A stretch of 64,000 nucleotides of DNA from Candidatus Parcubacteria bacterium (GCA_026395685.1 JAPLYG010000006.1:4943-68942), one strand, 5' to 3'. Shown: positions 11,656-62,101, counted from the stretch's first letter. Translations and numbers: made by a program. The notes: a model not told the origin generated them from the letters alone.

Positions 11656-11762
11656 ATTTGGTGAACAGTGAAAAGGTAAAGATGCTGGTAGGTGGGAGGA
11701 GTAAGGGTAATGTCAATAAAGACCCGATACCTTACCATGTCACTTACTAGCATCCTAACCAA
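11650..11762. repeat. Family H hairpin element, copy 4
   Basis: ggtgaacagtgaaaaggtaaagatgctggtaggtg...cacttactagcatcctaacc. Confidence 0.5.
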
Positions 11763-11808
11763 AACACTTTACCTTTTGATTTACCGAAATAACTGCTAAA
11801 ATATAATC

Positions 11809-23637: not shown

Positions 23638-24120
23638 ATGGAAAAATTAAAAATAAGCAGTATATTGATTATTATAGGAGTATTAGGTTTGATGTGCTTT
23701 GCATTGTTTAATATTTGGTTATTTAAGCAACAAACAAATTATGAAAATGAGGCTAAAAGACTTCCGTTGCCGAAGACTTATGATGAAAGAATTGCCTGTA
23801 ATAACGATAATGATTGCGTTTTATTTAGGGATAGATGCGGCGAGTTAATTCCCACAAATAAAAAATTTTTATACGCAATGGAAAAGCAGAAGCAGGCACA
23901 GATGGCAAGCGTTGATGGAGAATTTAGTCTATGCTTATTTAGCAGCCCAACATTATTATCAGGCGAAGAATTTGTTGCAAAGTGTAAAAATAATCAATGT
24001 GTCTTGGCAAGAGAAAAGGTAAACACTAAAATAAAAATATTTGCAGGAGTGATAATATTGATTGTGGGAATTGCGGTTATTTTTGTGATAAAGAAGAAAA
24101 GGCACTTGAAGATAAGTTAA
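23638..24120 (+). CDS. Bitopic Cys-motif protein, paralog 2. Hypothetical.
   Basis: Same architecture as paralog 1, with the motif CNNDNDCVLFRDRCGE. It begins with the same MEKLK. Confidence 0.5.
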   Translation: MEKLKISSILIIIGVLGLMCFALFNIWLFKQQTNYENEAKRLPLPKTYDERIACNNDNDCVLFRDRCGELIPTNKKFLYAMEKQKQAQMASVDGEFSLCLFSSPTLLSGEEFVAKCKNNQCVLAREKVNTKIKIFAGVIILIVGIAVIFVIKKKRHLKIS

Positions 24121-27942: not shown

Positions 27943-27969
27943 TCTGGAAGGGAAGCAGAAAACAGCATC

Positions 27970-28050
27970 TGCTCCCCGCCTAAATTGAGTCTTTTTCAAA
28001 GGGAAGAAGATTCAAAAGTAGGTTAAGTTCTTTAAATATCTATAACGTTT
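27970..28050 (+). repeat. Cassette junction core, copy 1
   Basis: ctccccgcctaaattgagtctttttcaaagggaagaagattcaaaagtaggttaagttctttaaa. Confidence 0.6.
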
Positions 28051-28071: not shown

Positions 28072-28746
28072 ATGAAGAAGATGATGATGGCGGCCATAGT
28101 TGTTTGCCTGTTGGCTACTTCGGCTAAGGCTGGCCAGCTTCGTCTGGCTGGTTACTACGATGTCAGCAGGGAACAGAGAACCATCACGGTTGACGGTTTC
28201 TCGCAGCTGTCCACAAAGTGGAGCACCTGGGGGTTCGTGGACTTTTACACGACCCAGGGCAACCAGAAGGATGCGGCTGACAATGCTGATGTCCAGACAT
28301 TCTGCGGCAAAGGCACTCTGAGCTTTGTTCTCTGGCAGATCGATCAGCACAACTCTGTCAAACTGACTGGCGAGCTGATTGACTCCAGCTGGGCTAGCTC
28401 TGAGTTTCGTCCTGGCCTGCAGTGGGTGGTTGGCGGCGACTGGGGATTTGCGAACTTCAAAGTTCTGCCAGTGACTTTTGAACTGGTGGCGCCGGAAGAT
28501 CCGCTTCCTCAGGTTGGTGCCATTGGTGGAGCCTGGTATGTTAATGCCAGTGACAAGATGTTCTGGGAGGGCTTCTGGGAAATGACCTATACCTATGAGG
28601 ATCAGACTCGGTATTATCCGGTTATCGGAGAGACCCAGCTGGGATATCGTCTGACTGAAAAGCTCAATATCCTCGTAGAGTATCGGTACAACAACTTCGT
28701 GGAAGATGATCACGGCCTCGGACTCGGGGCTGAGATCGTCTTCTGA
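28072..28746 (+). CDS. Cassette ORF 2. Secreted beta-barrel outer-membrane-protein-like protein (OmpW/OmpA-barrel-like).
   Basis: Signal peptide MKKMMMAAIVVCLLATSAKA. Alternating hydrophobic strands. C-terminal ...GAEIVF ending in Phe. GC is roughly 55%. Confidence 0.5.
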   Translation: MKKMMMAAIVVCLLATSAKAGQLRLAGYYDVSREQRTITVDGFSQLSTKWSTWGFVDFYTTQGNQKDAADNADVQTFCGKGTLSFVLWQIDQHNSVKLTGELIDSSWASSEFRPGLQWVVGGDWGFANFKVLPVTFELVAPEDPLPQVGAIGGAWYVNASDKMFWEGFWEMTYTYEDQTRYYPVIGETQLGYRLTEKLNILVEYRYNNFVEDDHGLGLGAEIVF

Positions 28747-28773
28747 CATCAGGGGAGCGGACTAAGGATAGTC

Positions 28774-28894
28774 TGCTCCCCACCTAAATTGAGTTTTTTT
28801 CCAAGAGAAGAAGATTCAAAAGTAGGTTATGTTCTTTAAAGATAAATACCCCCCTCTAACAGTCCTGCAATGCGGGACAAAAGGAGCCAGAATA
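28774..28894 (+). repeat. Cassette junction core plus leader, copy 2
   Basis: ctccccacctaaattgagtttttttccaagagaagaagattcaaaagtaggttatgttctttaaagataaatacccccctctaacagtcctgcaatgcgggacaaaaggag. Confidence 0.6.
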
Positions 28895-29296: not shown

Positions 29297-29322
29297 TAAA
29301 AAGGGGAGAGATTGCTAAAAGC

Positions 29323-29385
29323 AACCTCCCCGCCTAAATTGAGTCTTTTTCCAAGGGAAGAAGCTTCAAAAGTAGGTTAAGTTCA
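29323..29385 (+). repeat. Cassette junction core, copy 3 (terminal)
   Basis: ctccccgcctaaattgagtctttttccaagggaagaagcttcaaaagtaggttaagttc. Confidence 0.6.
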
Positions 29386-29427
29386 TAAAATTAAACAATC
29401 TTAATTACATTATTAATTATAAATAAT

Positions 29428-30123
29428 ATGTATAAAATTTATAACCATACTTCAGCAAAAATGAAAGAGATTGGCCAGCAGTCGGTTGACTTGATTTTTA
29501 CTTCGCCTCCATATAACATCAGCACCAGCTACGGCAAATATCGGGATAATTTGAGTCTCAAAGCGTACCAAAAATTTCTGCAGTCAGTTATCGGCGAATG
29601 CGCCAGAGTAATTAAAAAAGACGGTAAATTAATTATTGAAGTCGCTGACAGTGTTTTGATTGGCTCAAAATATCTGCAGCTTGCAGCGCTGATTGCCAAA
29701 TATTGCCTGGCTAAAGATTTTGTTTTGGTTACCAGATACATTAACTTTATTAAAACCAGCAATAAAGTGGAATTGGCTGATCATAATATGACGCCTGACT
29801 TTATTAATAAAGGCGATACGCATTCCAACTGTCATCAGCTTTTGATTTTTGTCAAAAAGCCTAAACAGCATGAATTTAAAGATGAAGTTTTATACATTAA
29901 TTATCTGGATTCCAAAGAGCACCCTTGCCCGACGCCGAAAGCCATGCTGACTTTTATTTTAAACAGATATTTTAAGAAAGGCTATAAAGTTTTAGACCCT
30001 TTTAGCGGTACGGCTAATCTTGGCGCGGAAGTCTTGAAACGGGGTGGGGATTTCTATGGTTATGAAATAAATAGCGGTTTCTGTAAAATTGCTGAGCAAA
30101 AGTTAAAATCATTTAAATATTAA
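29428..30123 (+). CDS. DNA methyltransferase of the N4/N6 type, beta class, circularly permuted. Orphan.
   Basis: SPPY (motif IV) near the N-terminus. DPFSGTANLG (motif I, F.G.G) near the C-terminus. No restriction endonuclease gene is adjacent. Confidence 0.7.
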   Translation: MYKIYNHTSAKMKEIGQQSVDLIFTSPPYNISTSYGKYRDNLSLKAYQKFLQSVIGECARVIKKDGKLIIEVADSVLIGSKYLQLAALIAKYCLAKDFVLVTRYINFIKTSNKVELADHNMTPDFINKGDTHSNCHQLLIFVKKPKQHEFKDEVLYINYLDSKEHPCPTPKAMLTFILNRYFKKGYKVLDPFSGTANLGAEVLKRGGDFYGYEINSGFCKIAEQKLKSFKY

Positions 30124-34403: not shown

Positions 34404-34430
34404 TTTTTTAAATTAAAATGTAGATATATT

Positions 34431-35000
34431 TAAGTCTAAAGTATAAAGGCTAAAGTCTAAGTTTTAGGAAGTTTTTTTGTTAAGTCTAAAGTATAAAGGC
34501 TAAAGTCTAAGTTTTAGGAAGTTTTTTTGTTAAGTCTAAAGTATAAAGGCTAAAGTCTAAGTTTTGGAAGTTTTTATTAAATTTAGGCTTTAGTCTTTTC
34601 TTTGTTTTCTATGGTTAAAATTGATTTTGAAAATATCAATGTTAGTTCATGAGCTTCTTGCCATAATTTTTGGCAATCATTTTTAAGTTCGGGAATTGCT
34701 TTAGAAATTAAATCCAGCCAATATTTAGATTCCTTTGCTTCCTTTTTACAAATATATAATTTATTTTTAAAATCACGCTTTGAACATGCGCCATTTGCTT
34801 CGCAGTAATTAGCTCCAACGCTGGTTACAGCTCGCACCAATTGGCTGATGAGAGGAAGAGTAATTACTGTTTTGGGGATTATACTTGCAAAAATGATAAT
34901 TTCTTCGCTGAATTTTTTTGTTCTTTCTTCTAGGTTATTAGGCATTTTAATATAAATTCATTAATTTAGCCTTTAGAACTTAGCCTTTAGACTTTGAATT
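34431..35000. mobile_element. MITE-like element carrying a four-helix-bundle gene (GTCTAAAG/CTTTAGAC inverted-repeat family). The left end has 3 x 50-bp tandem repeats.
   Basis: Three tandem copies of taagtctaaagtataaaggctaaagtctaagttttaggaagtttttttgt at 34431-34580. The inverted arm ...tagcctttagaacttagcctttagactt is at 34964-35000. Confidence 0.55.
34583..34945 (-). CDS. Four-helix-bundle protein (23S rRNA intervening-sequence protein family, TIGR02436-like)
   Basis: The motif YCEANGACSKRDFKNKLYICKKEAKESKYWLDL is characteristic of the family. The protein is about 85% identical to the ORF at 49751. Confidence 0.7.
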   Translation of the reverse strand: MPNNLEERTKKFSEEIIIFASIIPKTVITLPLISQLVRAVTSVGANYCEANGACSKRDFKNKLYICKKEAKESKYWLDLISKAIPELKNDCQKLWQEAHELTLIFSKSILTIENKEKTKA

Positions 35001-37939: not shown

Positions 37940-39553
37940 ATGGGAAAATGGCAAACATTAGCATTACGAGTCAAAAGACTGATTAGCCATAATCAGTTTA
38001 TTTTATATTTGGGAGTTTTTATCTTTTCTTTTTTGCTCTATCTTATGATTCAGTCCAGCCCGACATTTTTGGATCCGGATTCATTTTACCATTTAAAAAT
38101 GATTAAGCTGATTTCTGAGCAGGGGCCGATTATAAATTTCCCCTGGCTGCAATTTACCGTGCTGAAGGATTTTTACATTGATCATCATTTTTTATACCAT
38201 GTGTTGGGTGTGCCGTTTATTTGGCTTTTGGGCGATTTTAGCGGCTATAAATTTTACACCATTTTGCTTAACAGCCTTTTTGTGGTGCTCTGTTATGCGC
38301 TCTTAAAAAAAGAAGGCATTAAGTATCCGTCAATTTATGCTTTTTTAATTCTAACAACCAGTGGTTTGTTGTTTCGCATCTCACTTGCTAAAGCAATTTC
38401 CAGCTCTCTGATTTTAAGCTTTTTAACAATATATTGTCTTTTTAGCCGTAAAAAGTGGCTGCTTTATTTCATCTCCTGGCTTTATGTCTGGACATACGGC
38501 GGCTTTTTACTGGCCTGGGTTATCACCGGATTTTATTGTTTAAGCCAGGGATTTTATTCTGCCTGGATAGAGCCAGGTAGTCAGGAAAATAAGCACGATC
38601 ACAAGCTTGCCCGCTTTTTAGTTGCAACTTTTAGCAAGGATAATTTGCAGCTGATGATCGCCACAATTAGCGGTGTTATTACCGGGATTATTGTCAATCC
38701 TTATTTTCCGCGCAATATTAAGTTTGTCTGGCAGCAATTGGTGCAAATAGGCATTATTAATTACCGGGGCGCTGTTAATGTGGGCGGTGAATGGTATCCG
38801 ATAAAAGCTACGGAGTTAATTACTTCCTTAGGCGGTACTTTTATTCTGGCAATTTTTGCTTTGGCAGTATTTTTTGCCTTTATAAAAAAACAGGAAAAGC
38901 ATACAATATTTTTCTTTTTTAGCAGTTTGTTTTTTTTCGCTTTGACCTTGAAATCCAGGCGCTATGTGGAATACTTTGTCCCATATTTAATATTCTTTAT
39001 AGCTTATAGCCTTAATTACCTTTTATCCGCCTTTAACTGGAAAAAAATAATCAGGGAACTAAAAGAAGCCAGCCGGATTATCCCGATACTATTTTATCTT
39101 ACTGCTATTTTGGTGCTTGTCTTTGTGCCGGCCATCAATATCAAAGATGTATATCATAATTATGTGTCGTTTAAAAGAGGCTATCAGTTTGATACTTATG
39201 CCGGCGTTTCCCAATATTTAAAGGAAAATTCTCAGCCAGGTGAAATAATAATGCATACTGATTGGGATGATTTTCCCCATCTTTTTTATCACAATTCCCA
39301 GAATTATTATATTGTGGGGCTTGATCCGACTTTTATGTATAATTATGACCGCAAGCTTTATCAGCTTTACGCGGATATTACTATGGCGAAAATAAGCGAT
39401 AATTTATCCGAGCTTATTAAGGATAATTTTAAGGCCAAATATTTTATCGTGCAAAAGGGCCGGGAAGCCCTGCGCCAAAATTTGCAAAAGGACTCGAATT
39501 TTATTAAGGTATATGAAGATAAGGATGCTTGGTTGTATATGATTAAATATTGA
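37940..39553 (+). CDS. GT-C-fold integral-membrane glycosyltransferase, possibly oligosaccharyltransferase/STT3-AglB-like
   Basis: About 13 TM helices. DPDSFYH sits in the first extracytoplasmic loop, in the position of the acidic catalytic motif of GT-C enzymes. Confidence 0.45.
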   Translation: MGKWQTLALRVKRLISHNQFILYLGVFIFSFLLYLMIQSSPTFLDPDSFYHLKMIKLISEQGPIINFPWLQFTVLKDFYIDHHFLYHVLGVPFIWLLGDFSGYKFYTILLNSLFVVLCYALLKKEGIKYPSIYAFLILTTSGLLFRISLAKAISSSLILSFLTIYCLFSRKKWLLYFISWLYVWTYGGFLLAWVITGFYCLSQGFYSAWIEPGSQENKHDHKLARFLVATFSKDNLQLMIATISGVITGIIVNPYFPRNIKFVWQQLVQIGIINYRGAVNVGGEWYPIKATELITSLGGTFILAIFALAVFFAFIKKQEKHTIFFFFSSLFFFALTLKSRRYVEYFVPYLIFFIAYSLNYLLSAFNWKKIIRELKEASRIIPILFYLTAILVLVFVPAINIKDVYHNYVSFKRGYQFDTYAGVSQYLKENSQPGEIIMHTDWDDFPHLFYHNSQNYYIVGLDPTFMYNYDRKLYQLYADITMAKISDNLSELIKDNFKAKYFIVQKGREALRQNLQKDSNFIKVYEDKDAWLYMIKY

Positions 39554-39555
39554 AT

Positions 39556-39745
39556 GGGTTATGGTAAGGATACTGGTAAGTAAATGGCGTTAATTACTTA
39601 ACCTAAGCACATAACACATACTAGCATCATTACCAACTCACTTTTCACTAGTAAATGAGGTTATGGTAAGGATGCTGGTAAGTGATATGGTAAAGTGTTG
39701 GGTGTTTACATTTTCTACTTACCATAGCTCTAGAATCTACCAGCT
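39556..39745. repeat. Family H hairpin elements, two tandem degenerate copies
   Basis: ggttatggtaaggatactggtaagta...ctagcatcattacc and gttatggtaaggatgctggtaagtg...cttaccatagc. Confidence 0.4.
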
Positions 39746-39776
39746 TTTTTACCAAATCACATAATACTTTTTGTCT

Positions 39777-40499
39777 ATGAAGGTACTAATTGTTTTGCCA
39801 GCATATAATGAGGCTAAGATAATCCGCGAAAACACGGAGAAGCTTTTGGATTTTGTGCAGAAAAATTTATTGGACGACCAGATCCAGATTGTGATTGCTG
39901 ATAATAATTCAAAAGATCAGACCAGCGCAATCGGCAAAGAGCTGGCAGCCAAGTCTGATCAGATAGCTTATGAATTTGTGGCTGAGCAGGGCAAGGGCCA
40001 TGCAGTTTTATCGCCCTGGCTGAAGATGGAGGAGTTTTTTGATATATTTATCTTTATGGATGCTGACCTGGCAACTGATTTGCAGGATTTGCCTTATTTA
40101 ATTTTTGGCATAAAGCAAGGCTTTGATCTGGTGATCGGATCGCGCCGTCTTTCCGAATCTAAAGTTAATAAATCCATTAGCCGGCATATTTTTTCCTCGT
40201 GTTACCATTGGGTATTAAAAATATTATTAGGTACAAAAATAAATGATTTGCCCTGCGGTTTCAAGTCAATCAATCGCCGCGCGCTTAAAGACTTGGTTCC
40301 TTTGATAAAGGATCGTTCCTGGTTTTTTGACAGCGAACTTGTTTATCTGGCGGAAAAAAAAGGCTATAAAATAAAAGAGATTCCTGTAAAATGGCAGGAA
40401 CCTCGGCAAGGAGATGACAAAAGCCGGGTTAATCTCTGGAAAGTATCCTGGCTATATTTAAAGCGGGCTGTCCAGCTAAAGTTCAGAAAAATCAGTTAA
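39777..40499 (+). CDS. GT2 polyprenol-phosphate glycosyltransferase (Dpm1/GtrB-like)
   Basis: VLPAYNEA...IVIADNNSKD..., a DAD motif (FMDADLA), then later SR...F. Confidence 0.7.
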   Translation: MKVLIVLPAYNEAKIIRENTEKLLDFVQKNLLDDQIQIVIADNNSKDQTSAIGKELAAKSDQIAYEFVAEQGKGHAVLSPWLKMEEFFDIFIFMDADLATDLQDLPYLIFGIKQGFDLVIGSRRLSESKVNKSISRHIFSSCYHWVLKILLGTKINDLPCGFKSINRRALKDLVPLIKDRSWFFDSELVYLAEKKGYKIKEIPVKWQEPRQGDDKSRVNLWKVSWLYLKRAVQLKFRKIS

Positions 40500-42369
40500 T
40501 GGTCGCCTCACCAATAATGGTAATTTGATCAAAATTATTTTCCAGATTGTTAAGCTGGTTAAAAGTTGCGCCAGCACTTCCGGTAATGGTAAATTTTTTA
40601 AAATCATCAAATCCGAAGAAATTTATTTTTATCAATTGTCCCGGCTGCCAGGCGCTGGTCGGTAAAATTTCATAACCCAAAGGCAAATAAGTATCATTGA
40701 TTTTGATCAGATAATTCTGAGTGATCGGCTGCAGCCCCTTAAAATACAGGGAAACAAAACCATTGTTTTTTTCAGCGCCCAAAAATTCAATCATGCCGCC
40801 TAAGTCTTGTTTTTCAACTTTTAGTGACTCAGGTAACAAGGCTGGCGTCTCATATAATTTGTAAAGGCTTTCGCCTTTATTTTTTTGCCATAGTACTAGA
40901 GTTTTATCGACCTTAACCAGGGTATAATTTGCCAAAAGGTCTCTTAAGCGGTCATCCCCTAAATAAAAATCTTCTTTAAATGTCTTGCCATTGGCATAGG
41001 CATGTTCATAATAAATAAAAGTATCATAATTAAAAAAGATGTAAGGTAAATCATCAGGCAAAGGATAATCTCCCATTTTATATTGGCGTTTATTTAAAAA
41101 GCCGTATAAGGCATAATATAGGCCGGGCCTGCTGGAAAGCGGTGTCAAAAATTCATTGGTGGTCATAACATTTTCTCCGGCTGCTATTTTTTTGAGAAAT
41201 TCTGTTTTGCGGTGAACTTCCTGATAGTCAGTAGCATAGAGCGATTTGATAAAGGGTAAAAGCGGAGATTGAAAAATAAAATTGTAGCTAAGGGCAACGG
41301 TTAATAAAATATAGGGCAATTGGAAAAATTCGCGGCATAAATCAATAAATTTTCGGGAAGAAGATAATTTTTTTAAGCCAAAGATTGCGGCAATAAAAAA
41401 AGCAGGTAAAAGCAGAGAATTATAATGCGCGCGTATAAAAACCGTTCCGGTATTTGGTCCTAAGACAAATTCTAAGGCAGGGCCAAGGCAGAGCAGTAAA
41501 TATTTGGGACGAAAAAGGGGCAGTAGTAAAAAGAAAACTATTAAACAAAAAGCCGCCTCATAATGAGTGCAGTTTGAAAATATGTGTTTGAGCACGTCGG
41601 GAAATCTGAGAAAAAAATTTGCCAGTATTTCCTGTAAAGAATTGCCCAGCCAGGAGTAATAGACTAAAAATTTATAATTTTCAGCATTGGCAAAATAAGA
41701 GGAGATTTTAAGCGCGCTAAAAAAATATGCAGTTGAGGCAATAAGCGGGGTTAAAATCCAATAAATCTTTTTTTTATCAAGAATGGCCAGGACGCCGAAC
41801 ATAAAGATTATAAAACTCACGTCTTCCCGCACCAGAAGCGCAAGCGCGCAAAAAATTATAAAGGGTTTAAGCTTATTTTGATCATAAAAATAAAAAGCAA
41901 AAAGCACAAAAAAGGTTAACAGCGGTAAAATATGGAATTCAAAGATCGACTGATAAAGAATCAGGGGATTGAAAAGATAAAGACAGATTATAAAAAAAGT
42001 ATTTTTGGGTGAAAGATGCTTTTGGCAAATCAGAAAAAGGGGTATCACTGTTAGCGCCATAAAACAGGCTTGCATAAATACTAATGTCAAAGGATGCGGA
42101 ATCAGAGAATAAAAAGGAACAAGAAAAAAGATAATTATTTCAAAATGGTCGCCCAAATAAGAAGCGCCATGAAAAGAAAATTCAAACCAGCGGCCGTGCA
42201 TAGAATTAAAAAAGACTTGGTTATAAATAGCCAAATCCAGGCAAATGTATTTGTAGGTAAAATACTTAAACAGGCAAATGGCAAAAATGAAAATTACAAA
42301 AAACAGCATTAGAATCCAGGTGATTTTTGTCAATTTTGGCCAGGTTAAGTTGTCTAAATATGAAAACAT
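40492..42369 (-). CDS. DUF2079-like polytopic membrane protein, putative GT-C glycosyltransferase
   Basis: CLDLAIYNQVFFN and GASYLGDHF motifs. About 12 TM helices plus a ~250-aa C-terminal extracytoplasmic domain. Confidence 0.45.
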   Translation of the reverse strand: MFSYLDNLTWPKLTKITWILMLFFVIFIFAICLFKYFTYKYICLDLAIYNQVFFNSMHGRWFEFSFHGASYLGDHFEIIIFFLVPFYSLIPHPLTLVFMQACFMALTVIPLFLICQKHLSPKNTFFIICLYLFNPLILYQSIFEFHILPLLTFFVLFAFYFYDQNKLKPFIIFCALALLVREDVSFIIFMFGVLAILDKKKIYWILTPLIASTAYFFSALKISSYFANAENYKFLVYYSWLGNSLQEILANFFLRFPDVLKHIFSNCTHYEAAFCLIVFFLLLPLFRPKYLLLCLGPALEFVLGPNTGTVFIRAHYNSLLLPAFFIAAIFGLKKLSSSRKFIDLCREFFQLPYILLTVALSYNFIFQSPLLPFIKSLYATDYQEVHRKTEFLKKIAAGENVMTTNEFLTPLSSRPGLYYALYGFLNKRQYKMGDYPLPDDLPYIFFNYDTFIYYEHAYANGKTFKEDFYLGDDRLRDLLANYTLVKVDKTLVLWQKNKGESLYKLYETPALLPESLKVEKQDLGGMIEFLGAEKNNGFVSLYFKGLQPITQNYLIKINDTYLPLGYEILPTSAWQPGQLIKINFFGFDDFKKFTITGSAGATFNQLNNLENNFDQITIIGEATIN

Positions 42370-42547
42370 CGCTAATTTTAGGTAAATTATATGTTAATTC
42401 TAGCATATATTATAAGAAAATAAAACAACAGATATTGACATTTGTCTCCAAATGTGCTATTATAATAAGTACTTAAAGATAAAGAACGTTTTTTCCTATA
42501 ATCACATTAACCCAAAACAATCTGCCAAGGGCAGAGGAGGAAAAATC

Positions 42548-43126
42548 ATGAACAAGAAGATCATCGTTCTGTTGGCCTGCTTCGCAATCATCCTGTCCCA
42601 GGCCTGCGCCACCACCGTGGTGCGTCCGAATAACGGCGGCGTGGTCGTTGATACGATGGATCCGAAAGTCGCTCGCGACGCGGCCTCGCCCAACTCCAAC
42701 TACGCGACTCCGCTCGAGAATGCCTGCGCCGAACTCGTTCGGCAGGGCAAGGCCTCGTACATCCAGACTCCGGAGGGCACCAGGTGCATCGTGCACAATG
42801 GCAAGCCCGCTCCCGGCGAAACCCCTTCGCCGTTGGGAAAGACACAGAAGGGCGCCTTTGAAAACATCGGCAGCCATACCATCATGATCGAGGTCTACGA
42901 TGAAATCGGGATCAAGATCTCCAGCTTCACGCTCTTTCCCAAGGGCAACAAGGATGGCAAGGATGTGCGCGTCATGGACTTGGTGCCGGGCAAGTATCAC
43001 TACACTGCCCGGTATACCAGCAGCAACAAGTCCGCGGGCTTTGACTTGCCCATCGACACCCAGCCGTGTCCTGACTGCCATGTCTCGAACGGCACGACGG
43101 TGGAGTGGCGGGAAGTCGTCCGCTAA
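42548..43126 (+). CDS. GC-rich lipoprotein. Hypothetical.
   Basis: Lipobox ILSQAC. GC is roughly 60%. Upstream is TTGACA-17-TATTAT and a leader hairpin ctgccaagggcag before AGGAGG. A terminator follows at 43152-43180. Confidence 0.55.
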   Translation: MNKKIIVLLACFAIILSQACATTVVRPNNGGVVVDTMDPKVARDAASPNSNYATPLENACAELVRQGKASYIQTPEGTRCIVHNGKPAPGETPSPLGKTQKGAFENIGSHTIMIEVYDEIGIKISSFTLFPKGNKDGKDVRVMDLVPGKYHYTARYTSSNKSAGFDLPIDTQPCPDCHVSNGTTVEWREVVR

Positions 43127-43184
43127 AAAAAGCGGCAAAAATAAGAGGGTCTCACCCGGGACCCTCTTTTTCTTTTTGTTTAAA

Positions 43185-43619
43185 TTATTCAGAAATGACT
43201 TGTTGTGGAGTGCCTCCGTCGCCTTGCGATGCATAATAAAGAGCATTTAAGACATAGCTGGAAATAGCATAAGCTGAGATTATGATTACCAGGCCGATAA
43301 CCGCCTGGGTAATTACGGCCTTGGCTTTTTTAATTTTTTCTTCAGTGCCCATGGCAGTCATCCAGGTATAGCCGCCATAGATCATCAGGATAACAAAGAC
43401 AATTCCCAAAATTCCAAGCGCGGCGTTTATAACTTTGGCAATTAAGCTAAAAATATTAGTCGGTTGCTCTGACCCAAAAGCTGCCGATCCGAATTTTTGA
43501 ACTCCGCTGCTTATGGGCGTTGAGTCTGTCGGAGGAGTTGTTGCCTGAGCTAAAAGAGGCAATATTAAGCTGACTGCCAAAATAAGGATAATAAGAAATT
43601 TCACATTTAAAATTTTCAT
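43185..43619 (-). CDS. TrbC/VirB2-type (T4SS-like) pilin, paralog 1
   Basis: A signal peptide, a variable region, then TM1 ending in YGGYTWMTAMGTEEK...KAK..I..AVIGLVIIISAY, which is TM2. Confidence 0.65.
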   Translation of the reverse strand: MKILNVKFLIILILAVSLILPLLAQATTPPTDSTPISSGVQKFGSAAFGSEQPTNIFSLIAKVINAALGILGIVFVILMIYGGYTWMTAMGTEEKIKKAKAVITQAVIGLVIIISAYAISSYVLNALYYASQGDGGTPQQVISE

Positions 43620-43652
43620 AAATATTTTGTTAGGAAAAAATGATAGATTAGA

Positions 43653-44018
43653 TTATTTAGCGGCAAGCTCCAGGGCAGTGGTGATAAAATAAGCCAGACT
43701 ATAGGAAACAATAATAATTACAATACCGATTACAGCATATTTAATTATATTTTTCGCCTGCTCTATTTTTTTTGCATCACCCCTTGCGAGCATATAAGTG
43801 GTACCGCCATAAAGCAATAAAACAATAAAGACTATGCCCAAGACACCCAAGACACCCTGAACAATATTGCCGGCGATAATGTTTACATCTCTTTCTCCGC
43901 TATAACCCGTGTCCTCTATTGTTTTATTGAGTGATTCGGTAAATCTTGAAGCAAGGGCCAAATTAGCAGAAAAAATAAGAGTAATCAGGGCTAGGCAAAT
44001 TATAATTTTTTTAAGCAT
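43653..44018 (-). CDS. TrbC/VirB2-type pilin, paralog 2
   Basis: LLYGGTTYMLARGDAKKIEQAKNIIKYAVIGIVIIIVSYS. The start is ambiguous (M at 44018 or at 44033, or the tracked 44063). Confidence 0.6.
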   Translation of the reverse strand: MLKKIIICLALITLIFSANLALASRFTESLNKTIEDTGYSGERDVNIIAGNIVQGVLGVLGIVFIVLLLYGGTTYMLARGDAKKIEQAKNIIKYAVIGIVIIIVSYSLAYFITTALELAAK

Positions 44019-44022
44019 AAAT

Positions 44023-44412
44023 TTAAGAGGCATTTTCCAAAAGAGTCGTGATAAAATAAGCAATTGAATAAGATGCGATGATAATAATCAGGCCGATGAC
44101 AGCGCTAATAATAATTTTGCGCGCCTTGGCGGCCTTTTCTTCCGAGCCGGATGCGGTCATATATTGGAATCCGCCATAAATTATTAAAATCACAAAAACC
44201 AGGCCGAGAAGAGAAAAAAGAACCTGGACTGCCGTGCCTATAAATACGGCCAGATCGGTTTCACCTTTGACGCCTGCCTGAGAAGCGGTGGCATCAAGAT
44301 TAGGATTAATATTTTTCAGGCCTTGTGCCTGGCTATAATGCAGCGGGCAGGCTAGGGTAATAAATAAAAAAAACGCAAGAATAAGACAAGAAAGTAAGGA
44401 TTTAAATTTCAT
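44023..44412 (-). CDS. TrbC/VirB2-type pilin, paralog 3
   Basis: IIYGGFQYMTASGSEEKAAKARKIIISAVIGLIIIIASYS. Confidence 0.65.
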   Translation of the reverse strand: MKFKSLLSCLILAFFLFITLACPLHYSQAQGLKNINPNLDATASQAGVKGETDLAVFIGTAVQVLFSLLGLVFVILIIYGGFQYMTASGSEEKAAKARKIIISAVIGLIIIIASYSIAYFITTLLENAS

Positions 44413-44423
44413 AGATTTAAAAA

Positions 44424-44822
44424 TTATTGAATCGGTGTGCTTTCTGTTTGGGCGCTTTTCTCAAGGGAATTGGCAATGAAAGCTGTTGTGGCATAGGCGG
44501 AAATAATTATCACAATGCCGATTACTGCTGTTTTAAAGACTTTTTTGGCTTTATCGATTTTATTTTTATCAGCGCCAGACTCTGAAGTCATCCAGAGAAA
44601 TCCGCCATAAAGCATAAGCACGGCAAAAAGTACGCCAACCAGGCTTAATACGGCTTTAATCATTCCGGCAATAAATAAAGAATAGTCGGTTCCCGTCTCA
44701 TAGCCGATTGCCTGGCCGGAAGACTCGAAGTTTTTCTGAGCATCAGAAAAACCCTGAGCTAGGCAAATGCAGGGCAAAAGGATAGAAAGGCAAATAAGGG
44801 TAATTAATAAATATTTTTTCAT
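44424..44822 (-). CDS. TrbC/VirB2-type pilin, paralog 4
   Basis: MLYGGFLWMTSESGADKNKIDKAKKVFKTAVIGIVIIISAYA. Confidence 0.65.
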   Translation of the reverse strand: MKKYLLITLICLSILLPCICLAQGFSDAQKNFESSGQAIGYETGTDYSLFIAGMIKAVLSLVGVLFAVLMLYGGFLWMTSESGADKNKIDKAKKVFKTAVIGIVIIISAYATTAFIANSLEKSAQTESTPIQ

Positions 44823-44828
44823 AATATA

Positions 44829-45191
44829 TTAGGCTGTAAGAACACTGAAGATAAAGGCGGTAATGGAATAGGAGGCGGCAATAATAGTAACTCCGATTAT
44901 TGCCCAATAGAGGATTTTTTTTCCTTTAGTAAGACGCTCTTCATTGCCGGCGGCTGTCATTATGATTATTCCGCCATAGATGATAAAAAACAGAAAAATA
45001 GAACCTGTCAGGGACAGAGCGGCTCCGATTATTTGTCCGAAATACGTCGGCAAATCACCTTGAGGCAAAACAGTTTGATTTACTGTCTGGTTGAGATTGT
45101 CTAAGGGCGTTTGGGCTAAACAAAAGATACCAGGTATTAAAAAAAGATTAAGCAAAAGCAGTGTCAAAATTATCAAAGCTGTTCGGGGCAT
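44829..45191 (-). CDS. TrbC/VirB2-type pilin, paralog 5
   Basis: IIYGGIIIMTAAGNEERLTKGKKILYWAIIGVTIIAASYS. Confidence 0.65.
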   Translation of the reverse strand: MPRTALIILTLLLLNLFLIPGIFCLAQTPLDNLNQTVNQTVLPQGDLPTYFGQIIGAALSLTGSIFLFFIIYGGIIIMTAAGNEERLTKGKKILYWAIIGVTIIAASYSITAFIFSVLTA

Positions 45192-45197
45192 AGTTTT

Positions 45198-45581
45198 TTA
45201 TTGGCTCAGGGCTCCGAAAATAAAGGAAGTTATGGCATATGAAGCCGCTAAAATAGCAGCGCCAATTACAGCCCAGGTAATTACTTTTTTCCCTTTTTCC
45301 ACCCGGTCGCTTCCGGCAGAGGTCATTATCATGACTCCGCCATAAATTATTAAAAATAAAAAGATGGAGCCTGATAAGGCCAGCCCTGCGCCGACTACCG
45401 AGCCCAAAAACTCAGGAACAGAGACATCTTTTTTTAAGCCGCTTTGCGTGCCAGTCTCTTCCAGCCCATAGCCTCCTGTATCAGCGGGCGCATCAGTTGT
45501 TGCCTGCGCCAGATTGATAAAGGGAAGTGTCAGGGCTCCGAAAAGCAGGAGAGAAAGTAATAATAAAGAAAATTTGCGCAT
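45198..45581 (-). CDS. TrbC/VirB2-type pilin, paralog 6 (closest to paralog 5)
   Basis: IIYGGVMIMTSAGSDRVEKGKKVITWAVIGAAILAASYA. Confidence 0.65.
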   Translation of the reverse strand: MRKFSLLLLSLLLFGALTLPFINLAQATTDAPADTGGYGLEETGTQSGLKKDVSVPEFLGSVVGAGLALSGSIFLFLIIYGGVMIMTSAGSDRVEKGKKVITWAVIGAAILAASYAITSFIFGALSQ

Positions 45582-45728
45582 AAAAGTAGATTAAACATTT
45601 GGCCATTATGTCCGGCCAATGTCGTGATTAGAAATTGGAATTTATTGCTCTAAGGCAAGATGTTCCAAGCTCCAATCTGCAAAAAAGGGGAGCAGAAAAC
45701 TTTCCACTCCCCGCAAATATTCTAACTT

Positions 45729-46109
45729 TTAGGTAGTAGCAGAATAAAGTGCATTCAAGACAAACTGAGCGATTGCATAGGCACAAACGATAATTACCAA
45801 GCCGATAACACCCTGAATAATTAAGGTTTTTGCTTTTTTTACTGCTTCATCATTGCCCAAAGCAGTCATCCATTTAAAGCCGCCGATCAGGATAATGACC
45901 ACAGCAACTACGCCCAATAAAGCCATGGCGCTATTAATGATTCTGGCTGCAGTTGCGCGAATGTCAGCTGTTGCTAAGCTTGTTGACGCGGCAAATGATC
46001 CCAGGTTATTAAGCTGAAATTCTGGGTCAGCTGCATTAATAACTGCAGGAGCGACTAAGATGCCAAACAAGGCAATGAAAACTGCTAGACTTAATAAGAT
46101 TTTTTTCAT
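45729..46109 (-). CDS. TrbC/VirB2-type pilin, paralog 7
   Basis: ILIGGFKWMTALGNDEAVKKAKTLIIQGVIGLVIIVCAYA. Confidence 0.65.
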   Translation of the reverse strand: MKKILLSLAVFIALFGILVAPAVINAADPEFQLNNLGSFAASTSLATADIRATAARIINSAMALLGVVAVVIILIGGFKWMTALGNDEAVKKAKTLIIQGVIGLVIIVCAYAIAQFVLNALYSATT

Positions 46110-46272
46110 GTTTTTTAGTCCTTTTTAGTAATGCCCGGCTCGTTTTATATTCCGAACATTAAAATTAATTAGTAAATATTTAATTTTTAACTTTCAAAGA
46201 AACTATTCTCTTATCTTATTATAGCAAAAATGCTGTAAAACAAGCAATTATTTATTAACAGCCAAGGGTAAG

Positions 46273-46728
46273 CTATTCAGCTTCAAGCAGCGGCTTATTG
46301 CTTTCATCTTTCGGGGTTTGCGACCCTTGCTGTGATAAGGCGCCGATGATATATGAAACCATAACATAAGACCCAAAGATTACGACCAGGCCGATTGAAG
46401 CCCAAATCAGGGCGTTTTTGCCCTTAGTGATTTTGGTGGCATCACCCTGGGAAATGAGCATTAAAAATCCGCCATAAACGAAAATGATTAAGGCAATGGA
46501 TCCGACAATGCCTAAAGCGACCTGGATAATCAAACCAACGATTTGAGGAATAGTCAGATCAGGATTAACCGGACTGATAGTGCTCAAGTCAACTACAGTT
46601 GACGAAGATGACTGGTCATTGGAAGTTTCAGCCGGAGGCGTGCTGTCGGCAAAAGCAATGCCAACGGGAGCAAGAAGCAAAGTCATAAGCACAAGCGAGA
46701 AGAAAAGGAGGGATAATAGTTTTTTCAT
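46273..46728 (-). CDS. TrbC/VirB2-type pilin, paralog 8 (Ser/Thr-rich N-terminal variable region, acidic C-terminal tail)
   Basis: FVYGGFLMLISQGDATKITKGKNALIWASIGLVVIFGSYV. Confidence 0.65.
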   Translation of the reverse strand: MKKLLSLLFFSLVLMTLLLAPVGIAFADSTPPAETSNDQSSSSTVVDLSTISPVNPDLTIPQIVGLIIQVALGIVGSIALIIFVYGGFLMLISQGDATKITKGKNALIWASIGLVVIFGSYVMVSYIIGALSQQGSQTPKDESNKPLLEAE

Positions 46729-46839
46729 AAAGTAAAATAATAATTATTTAGGAAATAGTCTTTGTTTCGAATTCAGAAGGGGCTCTGAGAAAATTTGCCG
46801 GCTATTCCCGGTAACGAAGCTATATTGCTTCAGGCATTT

Positions 46840-48228
46840 TTACCGGGTCTGAATAGGTTTAGGTGCCGGGGGAACAAATCCAGCAGGCACACAGGTATAA
46901 AGCCACATACTTTTAGAAATGCATTCATCACTGCTACCTGCGCCTTCGCCGATTTTGCCCTGTCCGCACATATTTAAATTATTAGTCAGGCACTTTAGTC
47001 CGCCTTGGCAGTCGTCATTATTATTACATTTTGTGGCAATTGTTCCTGGCTGGCAGCGATTAGCTATAGGGGAAAAATCATCAAAAGCGCATTTCGGCGC
47101 TGAAACTCCTGCATAGCTGACTCCTACGCAATCGGCATCACTGTCACAATCACACCAACCACCCACCTTCATTTGCTCAAAATTTTCCGGTACGCAAGTT
47201 TTTGATGTTCCAGAGGAAAGGTTAACAGAACCAGTTGCGTGTGTGCAATGATTTGTTGCCCAGCATGCATCTTCATTATTCTCGCAGTAACGTTGCTGAT
47301 ACTCTCCTAAGCATTTATAGCCTGTAGGGCATTCTGCATCATCATTGCATGGAGAAAAAGGCTTGCCATCAGGCACGCAGTTATTGCCCCAATCAGTCTG
47401 GCAATGGAAGCCCACGGCGCAATCAGTGTCATCCCCTCCGCAGGGTGTGCCTAAATAGCCATAAGAACAGTGATTAAGCCAATTTCTTTGGCAGAATAAG
47501 GGGGATTGGCAGTCTGTATTGTTATCACAAGGGGCGCCTAACCCGCCTTTAAGTTGTAGATTTTTTATACATTTTCCTCCGGAGCATAAGCCATCACAGC
47601 ATTCTCTGTGATCCGTACAAACAGCATTTTCCGGCTTACAGCTGCCACAGTCCCAGAGCGAAGTAAGGGCATCATAAGTGCAGACTGTTCCGGTTACGGT
47701 ACATAACTTGCCGATACATTGATTACCGTCACCATCAGTATAAGGATCTCCGCAGTTTTTTGTTTGATCTTCCAAGCATTTATTTTGATTTTCCTGCCTT
47801 GCCGAATCATCTTCTGCTATTACCAATTCCGGTAAGCCGGGCATGGGCGCGCATTTTAGAGTAATGTTCCAGTCAAAACGATCTTTTTCAGTCAGGCTAT
47901 TAACCACAAAAGCGACAATGATATAGGCTAAAAAGGTGATCAGCAGTCCGATTATAGAATTAATCAGAATTTTTTTGCCCGTGTCTATTTTTCCGCTTTC
48001 ACCACCGGAAGTCAGCAAAATAAAACCGCCATAAACAAACATCAGCATAACTAAACTGCCGACAATGCCCATGAGGATGGTGCCGATCTTTAAAAAAGTA
48101 TTGACTATATCGCACAGGCTGCAGATGCCGGAAGAAGCGCAGGCCGGCAGAATAGATTCAACTGCGCTGGCCGGTAGAGCAACTGCAAGGGCGCATAAAA
48201 TAATCAAGCCCAATAAGATTTTTTTCAT
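46840..48228 (-). CDS. Pilin-domain protein fused to a ~330-aa Cys-rich extracellular domain (putative pilus-associated adhesin)
   Basis: An N-terminal 110 aa of pilin type (FVYGGFILLTSGGESGKIDTGKKILINSIIGLLITFLAYI). Then more than 50 Cys in repeated C..D.DC and G..C motifs. Confidence 0.6.
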   Translation of the reverse strand: MKKILLGLIILCALAVALPASAVESILPACASSGICSLCDIVNTFLKIGTILMGIVGSLVMLMFVYGGFILLTSGGESGKIDTGKKILINSIIGLLITFLAYIIVAFVVNSLTEKDRFDWNITLKCAPMPGLPELVIAEDDSARQENQNKCLEDQTKNCGDPYTDGDGNQCIGKLCTVTGTVCTYDALTSLWDCGSCKPENAVCTDHRECCDGLCSGGKCIKNLQLKGGLGAPCDNNTDCQSPLFCQRNWLNHCSYGYLGTPCGGDDTDCAVGFHCQTDWGNNCVPDGKPFSPCNDDAECPTGYKCLGEYQQRYCENNEDACWATNHCTHATGSVNLSSGTSKTCVPENFEQMKVGGWCDCDSDADCVGVSYAGVSAPKCAFDDFSPIANRCQPGTIATKCNNNDDCQGGLKCLTNNLNMCGQGKIGEGAGSSDECISKSMWLYTCVPAGFVPPAPKPIQTR

Positions 48229-48288: not shown

Positions 48289-49677
48289 TTATTCAGCCAA
48301 AGAACCGTTGATCTGGCTGGTTGCATCAGCCAGCAGCTCTTTTGTTTCTTTAGTGCCGGCCAGATTATTTTTTATCAGATTTTTCAGGGCTTGTTCCGCT
48401 ATTTCAGGATGAGCTCCCTTATACCAGCTTTTGGCAGTTAAAGTTTGCTTGCCAAACGCGGAGAAGTATAAGTCATCTTCAAAAACATTTAACAGCGATC
48501 TTAAAGCTGCCGGCTTTTTGGCGTCAGCTGTTGTCAGATATTTTTTATTGGCTTCTTCATTGGTAGCCATGAATAATATAATATCCCAGGCAACATCTTT
48601 GTATTTTGATTTTTTAGATACCCCCTCAGCCCAATAATTAGCAAAATTTACCGGCCGGTCTGTCAGCTGAGGCACCGGCGCAATGTCAAATTTTAAACCC
48701 TGATATTGGGTTTTTATTAAATTAAATTCATAGGCATAGCCCAGATAAAAGGCGATGGTACCATTGCCAAAGGCTTCGAGCGCATTGGGCATATCCGCAT
48801 CCCAGATAAAGTTTTCATTGCTGGGCGAGGCAAAACTATTATAAAAATTAAGGGCATTGGCCGCAATCAGTTCTTTGCCGGTTACAGTCGAGGGATTAGC
48901 ATTCAGATATGTGCGGCCGTTAGTATAAGCGATGGGATGGCCGGACTGGTAAAAAAGTAAAGATAAAATGTCAGTTGCTCGGCTGATATTATTGCTTGTT
49001 CCCAGGGCTCCGCCGGATTGGACAATTTCTCCCTTGTCATTTTGCTTGGTCATGCTGATAGCGTCTTGCTTAAAAGTCTCCCAGTCTGCAGGCGGTGTCT
49101 GTATGCCGGCATTATTCAGTAAATCACGGTTATAATATAAAACCAGGGTGTCGATGCTCAAAGGCAAACCGTAAATTTTATTATTTATTACCTGATTATC
49201 AGTGACAACATCGGGGAAAAGAGTTTTTAAATCATTGAGCGAAAGTGTATTCTTGATATTTGCTTTAGTATAGATTTGTTTTTTAAAAGTGCCTGACTCG
49301 AAGGCAGATTGCGTGGTAATTTGTTCCGGCAACGGAGAAAGGTAATCAATAAATTGTTTCATGGCTGTGGTATGGACTGAAAAAATATCAGGGCCGTTGT
49401 CTTTGGCAAAACTGGTGATCAGCGCCTGATTGTATTGCGCTGCGGTTTCCTGGCGATATTTTATCTGCACATGGGGATTTTTTTTGCTGTATTCTTGCAG
49501 CAGAACTTTGGTGGCAGAATTATCATTCCAGGATACAGACCAGTAATTAATAGTAATCGGATCCGGTGATCCTTCCTTAATTGCTCCATTGGGCAAGCCT
49601 CCGCACTTGGCGCCGCTGGTAATTAAAAAAGCAAAGAGTAAGAGAACGATAGTAATTTTTTTGTTTGGGTTTTTCAT
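48289..49677 (-). CDS. ABC transporter substrate-binding lipoprotein (family 1, sugar or oligosaccharide type)
   Basis: Lipobox ITSGAKC. SBP_bac_1-like N-lobe (ITINYWSVSW...QETAAQYNQALITSFA). Confidence 0.7.
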   Translation of the reverse strand: MKNPNKKITIVLLLFAFLITSGAKCGGLPNGAIKEGSPDPITINYWSVSWNDNSATKVLLQEYSKKNPHVQIKYRQETAAQYNQALITSFAKDNGPDIFSVHTTAMKQFIDYLSPLPEQITTQSAFESGTFKKQIYTKANIKNTLSLNDLKTLFPDVVTDNQVINNKIYGLPLSIDTLVLYYNRDLLNNAGIQTPPADWETFKQDAISMTKQNDKGEIVQSGGALGTSNNISRATDILSLLFYQSGHPIAYTNGRTYLNANPSTVTGKELIAANALNFYNSFASPSNENFIWDADMPNALEAFGNGTIAFYLGYAYEFNLIKTQYQGLKFDIAPVPQLTDRPVNFANYWAEGVSKKSKYKDVAWDIILFMATNEEANKKYLTTADAKKPAALRSLLNVFEDDLYFSAFGKQTLTAKSWYKGAHPEIAEQALKNLIKNNLAGTKETKELLADATSQINGSLAE

Positions 49678-49687
49678 AGTTTTACAA

Positions 49688-50185
49688 TAAGTCTAAAGTT
49701 TAAAGTCTAAAGACTAAATCAAGTCTAAAGTATTAAGTCTAAAATTTTTATTATTTAGACTTTTCTTTGTTCTCGATTGTTAATATAGATTTAGAAAATA
49801 TTAAAGTTAATTCGTGAGCTTCTTGCCGGAGCTTTTGGCAATCCTCTTTGATCTCCGGATTTGCTTTTGAAATCAAGTCTAACCAATATTTTGATTCTTT
49901 CGCCTCCTTTTTGCAAATATAAAGTTTATTTTTAAAATCTCGCCGTGAACAAGCTCCATTTGCCTCGCAATAATTGGCACCTATACTCGTAACAGCCCTA
50001 ATTAGCTGGCTTATTAGAGGTAAATTTATTATCGTTTTAGGAATTTTTTTAGCGAATACTATTATATCATCACTGAATTTTTTAGTTCTTTCTTCTAGGT
50101 TGTTAGTTGCCATTTATTTAAATTAATCTTCCAAAATTTAGCCTTTAGCTCTTAGCCTTTAGACTTTAGGATTTAGCTCTAAATT
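49688..50185. mobile_element. MITE-like element carrying a four-helix-bundle gene (GTCTAAAG family), second copy
   Basis: Left side agtctaaagtttaaagtctaaagactaaatcaagtctaaagtattaagtctaaa. Right side tagcctttagctcttagcctttagactttaggatttagctctaaa. Confidence 0.55.
49751..50113 (-). CDS. Four-helix-bundle protein (23S rRNA IVS protein family), paralog of 34583
   Basis: YCEANGACSRRDFKNKLYICKKEAKESKYWLDL. Confidence 0.7.
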   Translation of the reverse strand: MATNNLEERTKKFSDDIIVFAKKIPKTIINLPLISQLIRAVTSIGANYCEANGACSRRDFKNKLYICKKEAKESKYWLDLISKANPEIKEDCQKLRQEAHELTLIFSKSILTIENKEKSK

Positions 50186-60714: not shown

Positions 60715-61101
60715 TTATGCCTGTTTTGCCGGCACATTGGCAGGATTAGTTGCCTTTAACCAGCCACCCAGCATTTTGCCTAAGCTATCAAGACTTTCGT
60801 GAATTTCTCCGTATTTATTATCAGATAACTGTTTTACATCTTTAGCCATATCAGCAAAGACTTTTAGGGTATCAAGTTTGCGCATCGCTTGTTTTAAGGT
60901 GCCAAACTTGTCTGTTTTGCTCTGTCTGGTGGCAATAACTATTAATTCCAATATTTCCAAAACCGTGATTTCAGAGCTTTTTCTTAAGGTATTATCTTCG
61001 CTTTTAGCCATATCTGCGCACTGCTGATATAGATTGTAAGAACGATCTAAAATAGGGAATTTTTCTGAAAAATTGTCTAAAATGTCTTTTGATTTTTGCA
61101 T
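60715..61101 (-). CDS. Hypothetical helical protein
   Basis: 128 aa, predicted all-alpha. Terminator aaaaccttcctattcccaccggaaggtttt downstream. Confidence 0.4.
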   Translation of the reverse strand: MQKSKDILDNFSEKFPILDRSYNLYQQCADMAKSEDNTLRKSSEITVLEILELIVIATRQSKTDKFGTLKQAMRKLDTLKVFADMAKDVKQLSDNKYGEIHESLDSLGKMLGGWLKATNPANVPAKQA

Positions 61102-61598: not shown

Positions 61599-62101
61599 AA
61601 TAATCAATAATCAAACATCAATCATCAAACAAATTCTAATAATAAATATCTAATAATCAAATTTTTGTAATTTTGTTCTTTTCAATTATGGAAGTAAATA
61701 TTTTTATCAATTGGGTGGACTCATCGATCAAATTATTTTGTTCAGATTCTATACCGCAGACATTGCCGGTTTCAATTAATTTTAACCATAGACGGCTTTC
61801 CTTTACTTCTTTGCGGCAAATTTTAAGTCTGTGTACAAAATCCTTTTTACTTAAAGCTTCATTAGCTTCAATATAATTAGCTGCTGTTGAGCCCGAGGAT
61901 CTTATTAATTGCTTAGCATATTCCCAGTAGGATAAAGTTTTAGGAATTATTTTAGTAAAATTTCTGCATTTAATAGTAAATTGATAAGTTCTATCTTCTA
62001 AATCAAATGGTCTTAGCTCTTTCATGGATGTATTTAGTTGGAAATTAGAATTTTAAGATTAGTTATTGTTTGAATATTGATTATTGATGATTGGTGATTT
62101 T
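61599..62101. mobile_element. MITE-like element carrying a four-helix-bundle gene (AATCAATAATCAA inverted-repeat family)
   Basis: Left arm taataatcaataatcaaacatcaatcatcaaacaaatt. Right arm gtttgaatattgattattgatgattggtgatttt. Empty copies are at 6203 and 20973. Confidence 0.55.
61657..62025 (-). CDS. Four-helix-bundle protein (23S rRNA IVS protein family), divergent third member
   Basis: ANYIEANEALSKKDFVHRLKICRKEVKESRLWLKL. Confidence 0.65.
   Translation of the reverse strand: MKELRPFDLEDRTYQFTIKCRNFTKIIPKTLSYWEYAKQLIRSSGSTAANYIEANEALSKKDFVHRLKICRKEVKESRLWLKLIETGNVCGIESEQNNLIDESTQLIKIFTSIIEKNKITKI

Follow-up and report, generated by a model that had tools for sequence, protein, structure and literature searches.

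The 64,000-nucleotide stretch of Candidatus Parcubacteria bacterium DNA considered here (GCA_026395685.1 JAPLYG010000006.1:4943-68942; hereafter the window) is an origin-proximal piece of chromosome, with dnaA at 16053-17453, dnaN at 17718-18878 and the minimum of the cumulative GC skew at the same place. Gene calling across it confirms nine adjacent open reading frames (ORFs) on the minus strand at 43185-48228, which we number W1 to W9 in the order of their transcription, from W1 (46840-48228) to W9 (43185-43619). A first examination of this DNA, referred to below as the sequence-only reading, had taken the nine consecutive genes for paralogous pilins of the TrbC/VirB2 type that share one C-terminal module, and the ORFs, the motif and the family matches agree with it on the genes and on the module. 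In Pfam searches all nine products match PF18895 (T4SS_pilin, named for the type IV secretion system, T4SS) with E-values between 1e-5 and 2e-11; against a gathering cut-off of 26.6 bits, eight score 27.6 to 44.0 bits and W4 reaches 26.0 bits. Among six-frame ORFs of at least 50 amino acids (aa) throughout the window, a profile of 83 family members recovers precisely W1 to W9 and no further ORF. Chance is not a plausible source of a family match over nine genes. Identical proteins, several of them named 'pilin', are present in a Candidatus Parcubacteria bacterium metagenome-assembled genome at NCBI, with locus tags of approximately NTZ49_01340-01380.

Upstream of the array by 60 nt, and on the same strand, lies a gene for a 462-aa sugar-type solute-binding lipoprotein of the SBP_bac_1 family (48289-49677; PF01547, E 2.5e-25). 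W1, also of 462 aa, scores 36.5 bits against PF18895 and bears a weak Dickkopf_N match (19.9 bits); it is followed by W2 (46273-46728; 151 aa, 37.9 bits) and W3 (45729-46109; 126 aa, 39.2 bits). Between W3 and W4 a pattern scan finds a terminator-like hairpin with a U-run on the minus strand (45687-45712; fold of -21 kcal/mol, z-score -3.3). Then come W4 (45198-45581; 127 aa), which scores 115 bits against the 83-member profile, W5 (44829-45191; 120 aa, PF18895 32.9 bits), W6 (44424-44822; 132 aa, 27.6 bits), W7 (44023-44412; 129 aa, 43.9 bits), W8 (43653-44018; 121 aa, 44.0 bits) and the last gene, W9 (144 aa, 36.3 bits). The ATG at 44018, which leaves a 4-nt gap, is the likelier start of W8 as judged from gene spacing, because starting from the alternative TTG, at 44063, would create a 41-nt overlap with W7. 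A two-way terminator-like hairpin at 43143-43168, found by a pattern scan of both strands (fold of -16.7 kcal/mol), ends the array and faces a convergent high-GC gene. The intergenic gaps are as short as the sequence-only reading had said, although they measure 4-163 nt rather than 6-160 nt: 111-163 nt from W1 to W4, and 4-33 nt from W4 to W9. Because they are so tightly packed, the six genes W4 to W9 are probably co-transcribed.

Hydropathy and an AlphaFold 2 (AF2) model indicate a common topology, in which a signal-peptide-like helix is followed by two long helices joined through a short lysine-rich loop; in the W9 model the helices span residues ~56-88 and 93-131, and the hairpin has a predicted local distance difference test score (pLDDT) of 91-95. 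The two-helix pilin topology that had been proposed is thus upheld. An AxA-type signal peptidase I site can be read from all nine sequences. The shared YGG...G...K.K...IG...Y module is real, with an invariant part that comprises the GG of YGG, the IG, one Tyr and one Leu; in W9 numbering the residues invariant across the alignment are G72, G82, G83, I108, G109, Y117 and L127. Pairwise protein identity among the nine is 24-50%. Their mature N-terminal segments, predicted to be exposed, are 19-33 aa long and 7-32% identical, as against 23-59% for the core, which accords with the earlier description of variable mature N-termini. None of the nine has a type IV prepilin leader; they carry instead long Sec-type signal peptides and two further hydrophobic helices. 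Pilins of type IV pili were accordingly rejected as an identity for W1 to W9, the class III signal peptide (a short basic leader, G at -1, F/M-x-x-x-E and a single N-terminal hydrophobic helix) being absent from these proteins and type IV pilus families being absent among the Pfam matches.

Paralog types and lipoprotein partner in related loci

The sequence-only reading had singled out W4 and W5 (45198 and 44829) and W7 and W8 (44023 and 43653) as recent duplicates. That dating does not hold: W5 is the closest paralog of W4, yet the two proteins are only 50% identical, and W7 and W8 only 44%; both pairs are 62-63% identical in DNA, a level at which synonymous sites between paralogs are saturated, and the duplications are hence old. 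A 7.7-kb contig, L001, is collinear with the window and carries a sugar-binding protein gene, a Cys-rich head pilin and seven more pilins. Positional orthologs in the window and L001 are 40-67% identical, whereas paralogs within the window are 24-50% identical; W3 shows 58% identity to L4 of that contig, W4 and W5 show 67% and 56% to L5, W6 shows 45% to L6 and W7 shows 51% to L7. By this comparison of sequences, the paralog types are old and predate speciation.

The partner lipoprotein served as the anchor of a wider survey that took one genome per GTDB species and, from at least 536 relatives of the binding protein, carried the best 80 loci into the analysis. A profile built from five orthologs of this protein matches solved oligosaccharide/maltose-type binding proteins with E-values down to 1e-22, and the orthologs, 37-57% identical, are lipoprotein-like in having a Cys after the signal sequence. 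No ATP-binding cassette (ABC) permease lies beside the binding-protein gene, either in the window or among the genes called in four related loci (L001, L006, L007 and L009). What does lie beside it is pilin genes. Of the 68 loci whose downstream sequence extends to at least 1.5 kb, 64 contain a pilin ORF that begins no further than 1.2 kb behind the binding-protein gene and shares its strand. The 74 loci with pilin ORFs have 322 of them, every one located downstream of that gene and encoded on its strand. When loci are anchored instead on the pilin, the binding-protein gene is directly upstream in four of six (L001, L006, L007 and L009; not L008 and L010). Many records titled 'uncultured Gammaproteobacteria bacterium' (L011, L015, L017-L021 and others) carry the binding-protein and pilin module, which otherwise occurs in Patescibacteria-named records; these titles look mislabelled.

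Within the surveyed loci the pilin types recur in a set order. Of 70 loci, 59 have a leading pilin whose best match is W1, and 10 one whose best match is W2. In 65 of 74 loci the genes keep one succession, in which a W1 and then a W2 type lead, W3 comes next, in some cases after an interval of 2-8 kb occupied by other genes, and a W9-like run concludes. In most surveyed loci a W3-type ORF stands ahead of the W9-like run, opening a series of short, Cys-poor pilins; W9, the type most resembling the repeated short Cys-poor pilins of related arrays, is the best match for 143 of the 322 ORFs. Because paralog types and their order are conserved across loci, specialised subunits are favoured over antigenic switching.

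The cysteine-rich head of W1

W1 differs from the other members in its layout: a signal peptide and a short exposed segment with three Cys are followed by the PF18895 hairpin (residues ~41-108) and then by a C-terminal domain of 347 residues, which contains 39 Cys and which the hairpin topology is predicted to place outside the membrane or cell. The AF2 model of this head is of moderate confidence (pLDDT ~70-90 over most residues), and its structural matches, to Dickkopf- and Draxin-type knots, are weak. An exhaustive HMMER search of 1.84 billion representative proteins yields 29 relatives of the head, and of 20 such homologs checked, 17 also contain the PF18895 module (E<=0.01), so that the head seldom occurs unless joined to a pilin module; a scan with the W1 protein returned no relative among GTDB representatives. 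Distant versions of the head are single genes directly after a DsbA-like gene, an arrangement that fits disulfide formation. Three close relatives (P0002, P0003 and P0004) have pilin modules and linkers that are 96% identical, whereas their heads share only 20-42% identity, which at the sequence level is the pattern of an exchangeable binding domain.

The two orthologs of W2 on the L001 contig (L2 and L3; 67% and 63% identical) have Cys-rich N-terminal extensions. In the survey, 42% of W2-type ORFs are at least 180 aa long and 45% have at least 6 Cys; more generally, 28-45% of W1- and W2-type ORFs are long or Cys-rich, as against 0-3% of those of the W3 and W9 types. Further architectures of the pilin module occur in proteins from other metagenomes (P0005, P0007 and P0008) and at L001 3615-5156, among them two PF18895 modules in one polypeptide and Cys-rich extensions placed on the N-terminal exposed side rather than the C-terminal one. 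As far as these alignments go, diversification between strains resides in the Cys-rich head of W1 and not among the members of the array. Neither the conserved partner lipoprotein, nor the set order in which the paralog types follow one another, nor the exchangeable Cys-rich head appears to have been described in the literature searched.

Relation to type IV secretion and competing explanations

The assignment of the array to the TrbC/VirB2 type stands in part. Matches of all nine products to PF18895 support it, but in the search with PF04956 (TrbC/VirB2) the best window protein, W8, reaches 20.0 bits (E 8e-4), below the gathering cut-off of 27.9 bits. Relatives from homologous arrays do pass PF04956 (P0056 at 42.0 bits, P0118 at 30.3, P0020 at 28.9 and P0031 at 28.5), and P0056 passes both models, with 42 bits over nearly the full length of TrbC and 43 bits against PF18895. 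Because such relatives satisfy both profiles, homology of the window pilins to VirB2/TrbC is supported through intermediates; on these scores it holds by transitivity only, the window proteins themselves falling short of direct PF04956 membership. A second conjugation-related model, NF045849, built on pilin-like conjugal transfer proteins of Mycoplasma integrative and conjugative elements (ICEs), also matches all nine; with a cut-off of 40 bits, W9 passes at 42.5 bits and the others score 15-39 bits. A profile of the nine paralogs searched against PDB sequences finds chance G-protein-coupled receptor helices only.

We regard it as moderately probable that the genes of this locus supply the subunits of a T4SS-type (VirB2-like, PF18895) pilus of Patescibacteria, or of a pilus-like envelope structure, that is heteromeric and has specialised subunits, and that the module is polar, running from the sugar-binding lipoprotein through the head pilin W1, W2 and W3 to the six short pilins W4 to W9. 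A multi-subunit pilus was one of two options offered by the sequence-only reading, and the collinear, conserved types make it the better fit. The subunits would be exported, their signal peptides cleaved, and the products stored in the membrane as hairpins, from which a VirB4/VirB6-type machine encoded elsewhere in the genome would extract and polymerise them. Extraction from the membrane and polymerisation are known for VirB2, TrbC and TraA. The shaft, or most of it, would consist of W3 to W9; low-copy tip or adhesin subunits that display the swappable Cys-rich head, by analogy filling the job of VirB5 in diderms, may be provided by W1 and, among relatives, by W2; and the co-transcribed lipoprotein might take part in host-glycan recognition or in assembly. 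Such a structure would serve in attaching to a host cell or in exchange with it, as has been proposed for the essential array of Southlakia epibionticum, in which a predicted series of pilins lies within an essential T4SS cluster (Wang et al. 2023, PMC10633639).

Several observations weigh against this pilus, beginning with the shortfall against PF04956. Alignment by hhalign of the 83-sequence alignment with Agrobacterium VirB2 (a query verified as 100% identical to the annotated virB2) is weak, with a probability of 10% and an E-value of 0.003. Fold searches are non-specific, since any helical hairpin matches: Foldseek reaches a best E-value of 1.5 in the PDB, and 8dfu, a conjugation pilin from Aeropyrum, comes up only at E 0.5-4.6. 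Pfam and NCBIfam scans, which covered almost all window ORFs of at least 110 aa not inside a longer called gene, find no VirB4, VirB6, VirB11 or VirD4 family in the window, in agreement with the earlier remark that VirB4 and VirB11 are missing there, and reveal housekeeping, cell-wall and glycosylation genes; a Patescibacteria VirB4-like query likewise has no match in the window. Nor does any of the 80 related loci have a VirB4-like ORF within ~10 kb of the binding-protein gene. Because virB4 is absent nearby, the link to T4SS depends on the family to which the proteins belong and on publications about other classes. No filament of any PF18895 protein is reported in the literature searched, the step from membrane hairpin to filament is inferred, and the roles given to W1, W2 and the lipoprotein derive from architecture only.

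It is the consistent absence of virB4 nearby that keeps the main rival alive. In that account the hairpins are not filament subunits but form, with the lipoprotein, a T4SS-independent, membrane-resident envelope complex, for example one for host-glycan docking or uptake, and 'pilin' is a family name only. The tight linkage of lipoprotein and pilin genes described above (64/68 loci, 322/322 ORFs), with start and stop codons often overlapping, speaks for such a complex, as do a binding protein that has no ABC permease partner nearby, the lack of a VirB4-like gene in both the window and ~10 kb of the 80 loci, and fold evidence for a pilin that is non-specific. We nonetheless judge it rather unlikely. 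Family relatives pass the TrbC/VirB2 model and the Mycoplasma ICE pilin-like model matches too; nine different two-helix subunits are hard to reconcile with a simple membrane complex; and the S. epibionticum array sits inside a T4SS cluster, while in a published survey 1,948 VirB4-containing assemblies had pilin genes, near virB4 in 1,135 of them (PMC12102498).

A different alternative, put forward in the sequence-only reading as antigenic or host-range variation, is that the paralogs are interchangeable versions of one surface subunit, one or a few of which are expressed at a time. Variation of this kind has been proposed for the VirB2 paralogs of Anaplasma and Bartonella, and the possibility has been raised for Patescibacteria arrays (PMC12102498). 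The exposed N-terminal segments are indeed the most divergent part of these proteins, and the longer upstream gaps of W1, W2 and W3 (111-163 nt) could hold promoters of their own. Against it, the array contains no near-identical tracts, invertible elements or cassette flanks, the best DNA repeat being 60-74% identical over 50 nt; W4 to W9 are packed 4-33 nt apart; the conservation of types and order over dozens of species (65/74 loci) points to fixed, non-redundant roles; and variation at the strain level is in the W1 head rather than among array members. A diversity-generating retroelement was considered because PF05635 and bAvd-like genes lie nearby, and cassettes of this or of the pilE/pilS type were rejected, there being no reverse transcriptase domain in the window and no template/variable repeat pair. 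With recombination substrates lacking, genes tightly packed, and types conserved and ordered, antigenic switching among the nine paralogs is, on sequence grounds, unlikely, and we attach little credence to the explanation as a whole. A third account, in which redundant copies amplify the dosage of one structural protein near the replication origin, finds some encouragement in the position of the array ~26 kb from dnaA and dnaN and in the proposal that origin-proximal placement of T4SS genes boosts expression (PMC12102498), but it is highly improbable, since dosage amplification normally leaves near-identical copies, whereas these are only 24-50% identical and each type has its own ortholog in other genomes.

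Returning to the heteromeric pilus or pilus-like structure, a bolder and distinctly tentative extension is conceivable for Patescibacteria of the Parcubacteria, Falkowbacteria and Uhrbacteria type: the lipoprotein and ordered pilins might constitute a host-interface module that always lies away from virB4, with W1 and W2 heads swapped between strains setting host specificity and the lipoprotein a working part of the organelle, perhaps for recognising host glycans, handling pilins or uptake. If true, this would amount to a conjugation-type pilus of a monoderm that is heteromeric and bears an adhesin at its tip, for which the literature searched has no description. A T4SS with a pilin array is essential in the sole species tested. 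The comparative pattern predicts fixed subunit classes in a fixed order together with a partner lipoprotein of sugar-binding type, and the strain-swapped Cys-rich head is a candidate determinant of host specificity. The pattern points to proteins to prioritise; the locus adds no new kind of system.

Surroundings of the array and comparison with known systems

Converging on the end of the array from the plus strand is a lipoprotein-like gene (42545-43126) that matches no family and has 59% GC, as against 39% for the window; it may have been acquired horizontally. The genes at 9020-9841 (56%) and 28072-28746 (53%) are likewise high in GC and match no family. Just past the array, at 37940-42369, is a glycosylation-type cluster encoding a polytopic protein with a weak STT3-like match, a family 2 (GT2) glycosyltransferase and a DUF2079 membrane protein. 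The polytopic protein (37940-39553; 537 aa) was tried as a VirB6 candidate and rejected, the STT3-like match being its only one.

Upstream of the array, a cassette with a PF05635 gene (23S rRNA-intervening-sequence or bAvd-like four-helix protein) is inserted between the binding-protein gene and an NTP-transferase gene. Such a cassette occurs twice, at 34430-34995 and 49687-50167, the gene being 77% identical over 300 nt, and AAGTCTAAAG-type tandem repeats flank both copies. The window contains a third PF05635 gene (61657-62025), a bAvd-like gene (60715-61101) and no reverse transcriptase. Repeated intergenic units, each a terminator-like hairpin with a conserved block of 50-65 nt, are found at 7700-7845, 8600-8851, 11626-11770 and 39595-39685; those at 7700-11770 flank three genes for secreted proteins of no known family (8015-8584, 9020-9841 and 10144-11601), and the extra copy is at 39.6 kb. 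A 77-nt intergenic element is present three times with 82-100% identity (27968-28044, 28772-28848 and 29322-29398), preceding small genes without a known family and adjoining an N6/N4 DNA methylase gene (29428-30123). At 23030-23518 and 23638-24120, adjacent genes encode paralogous small membrane-anchored proteins with a common Cys motif, their upstream regions being 92% identical over 116 nt.

Among known systems, VirB2, TrbC and TraA (PF04956) resemble the window pilins in their Sec-type signal peptide, two helices, short basic loop and small size. They differ in that the diderm systems have a single pilin where the window has nine paralogs, in that the window lacks adjacent VirB3, VirB4, VirB5 and VirB6, and in that its host is thought to be monoderm. 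The tip pilins VirB5 and TraC offer an analogy for the role proposed for W1 (and for W2 in relatives), which would likewise be low-copy, exposed, host-binding and adjoining the major pilin; no relation of sequence or fold connects them, and the adhesin-like domain of W1 is fused to its hairpin, whereas VirB5/TraC is a separate soluble protein. The VirB2 clusters of Anaplasma, Ehrlichia, Rickettsia and Bartonella, discussed as a means of surface variation, share with the window several divergent tandem copies. Their hosts, however, are diderm intracellular pathogens of animals, and the types in the window are conserved from species to species and follow an order, an argument for fixed roles.

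The Mbov_0395 family of Mycoplasma ICEs (NF045849) resembles the window pilins in having a wall-less or monoderm host, and its gene is single-copy on a mobile element as opposed to the chromosomal array seen here. Mycoplasma ICEs carry a T4SS of the mating-pair-formation class MPF-FATA, to which the VirB4 of Patescibacteria is related. The match of NF045849 to all nine products suggests that the pilin may have come with this class of T4SS rather than having been borrowed from diderm systems; monoderm MPF-FATA systems are said in a 2025 survey to lack VirB2-like pilins (PMC12102498).

The closest comparison is with other Patescibacteria. That survey, which used PF18895 and PF04956, counted 441 arrays, each with 2-11 pilin genes, among 383 assemblies of Patescibacteria; members of one array are on average 25% and at most 54% identical (Quinonero-Coronel et al. 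2025, PMC12102498). Like the window, such arrays consist of tandem, co-oriented, divergent two-helix PF18895 pilins, are chromosomal and origin-proximal, and have identities in the range seen here (24-50%); the nine genes of the window are near the top of the published size range. The survey defines an array as at least two pilin genes (PF18895/PF04956 i-Evalue <0.001, >50% coverage) in tandem or one gene apart, and the window has nine adjacent matches, each covering at least 53 of the 71 PF18895 positions, in DNA of Parcubacteria source. In Ca. Southlakia epibionticum ML1, the array of six genes, described in a 2025 review as six divergent VirB2-like pilins in an account that speculates on a monoderm pilus (PMC12857230), is essential and lies inside a T4SS cluster, whereas the window array has no VirB4 within the 43 kb and 16 kb on its two sides. 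The array is thus an ordinary one for Patescibacteria, in which pilin arrays of its kind have already been published.

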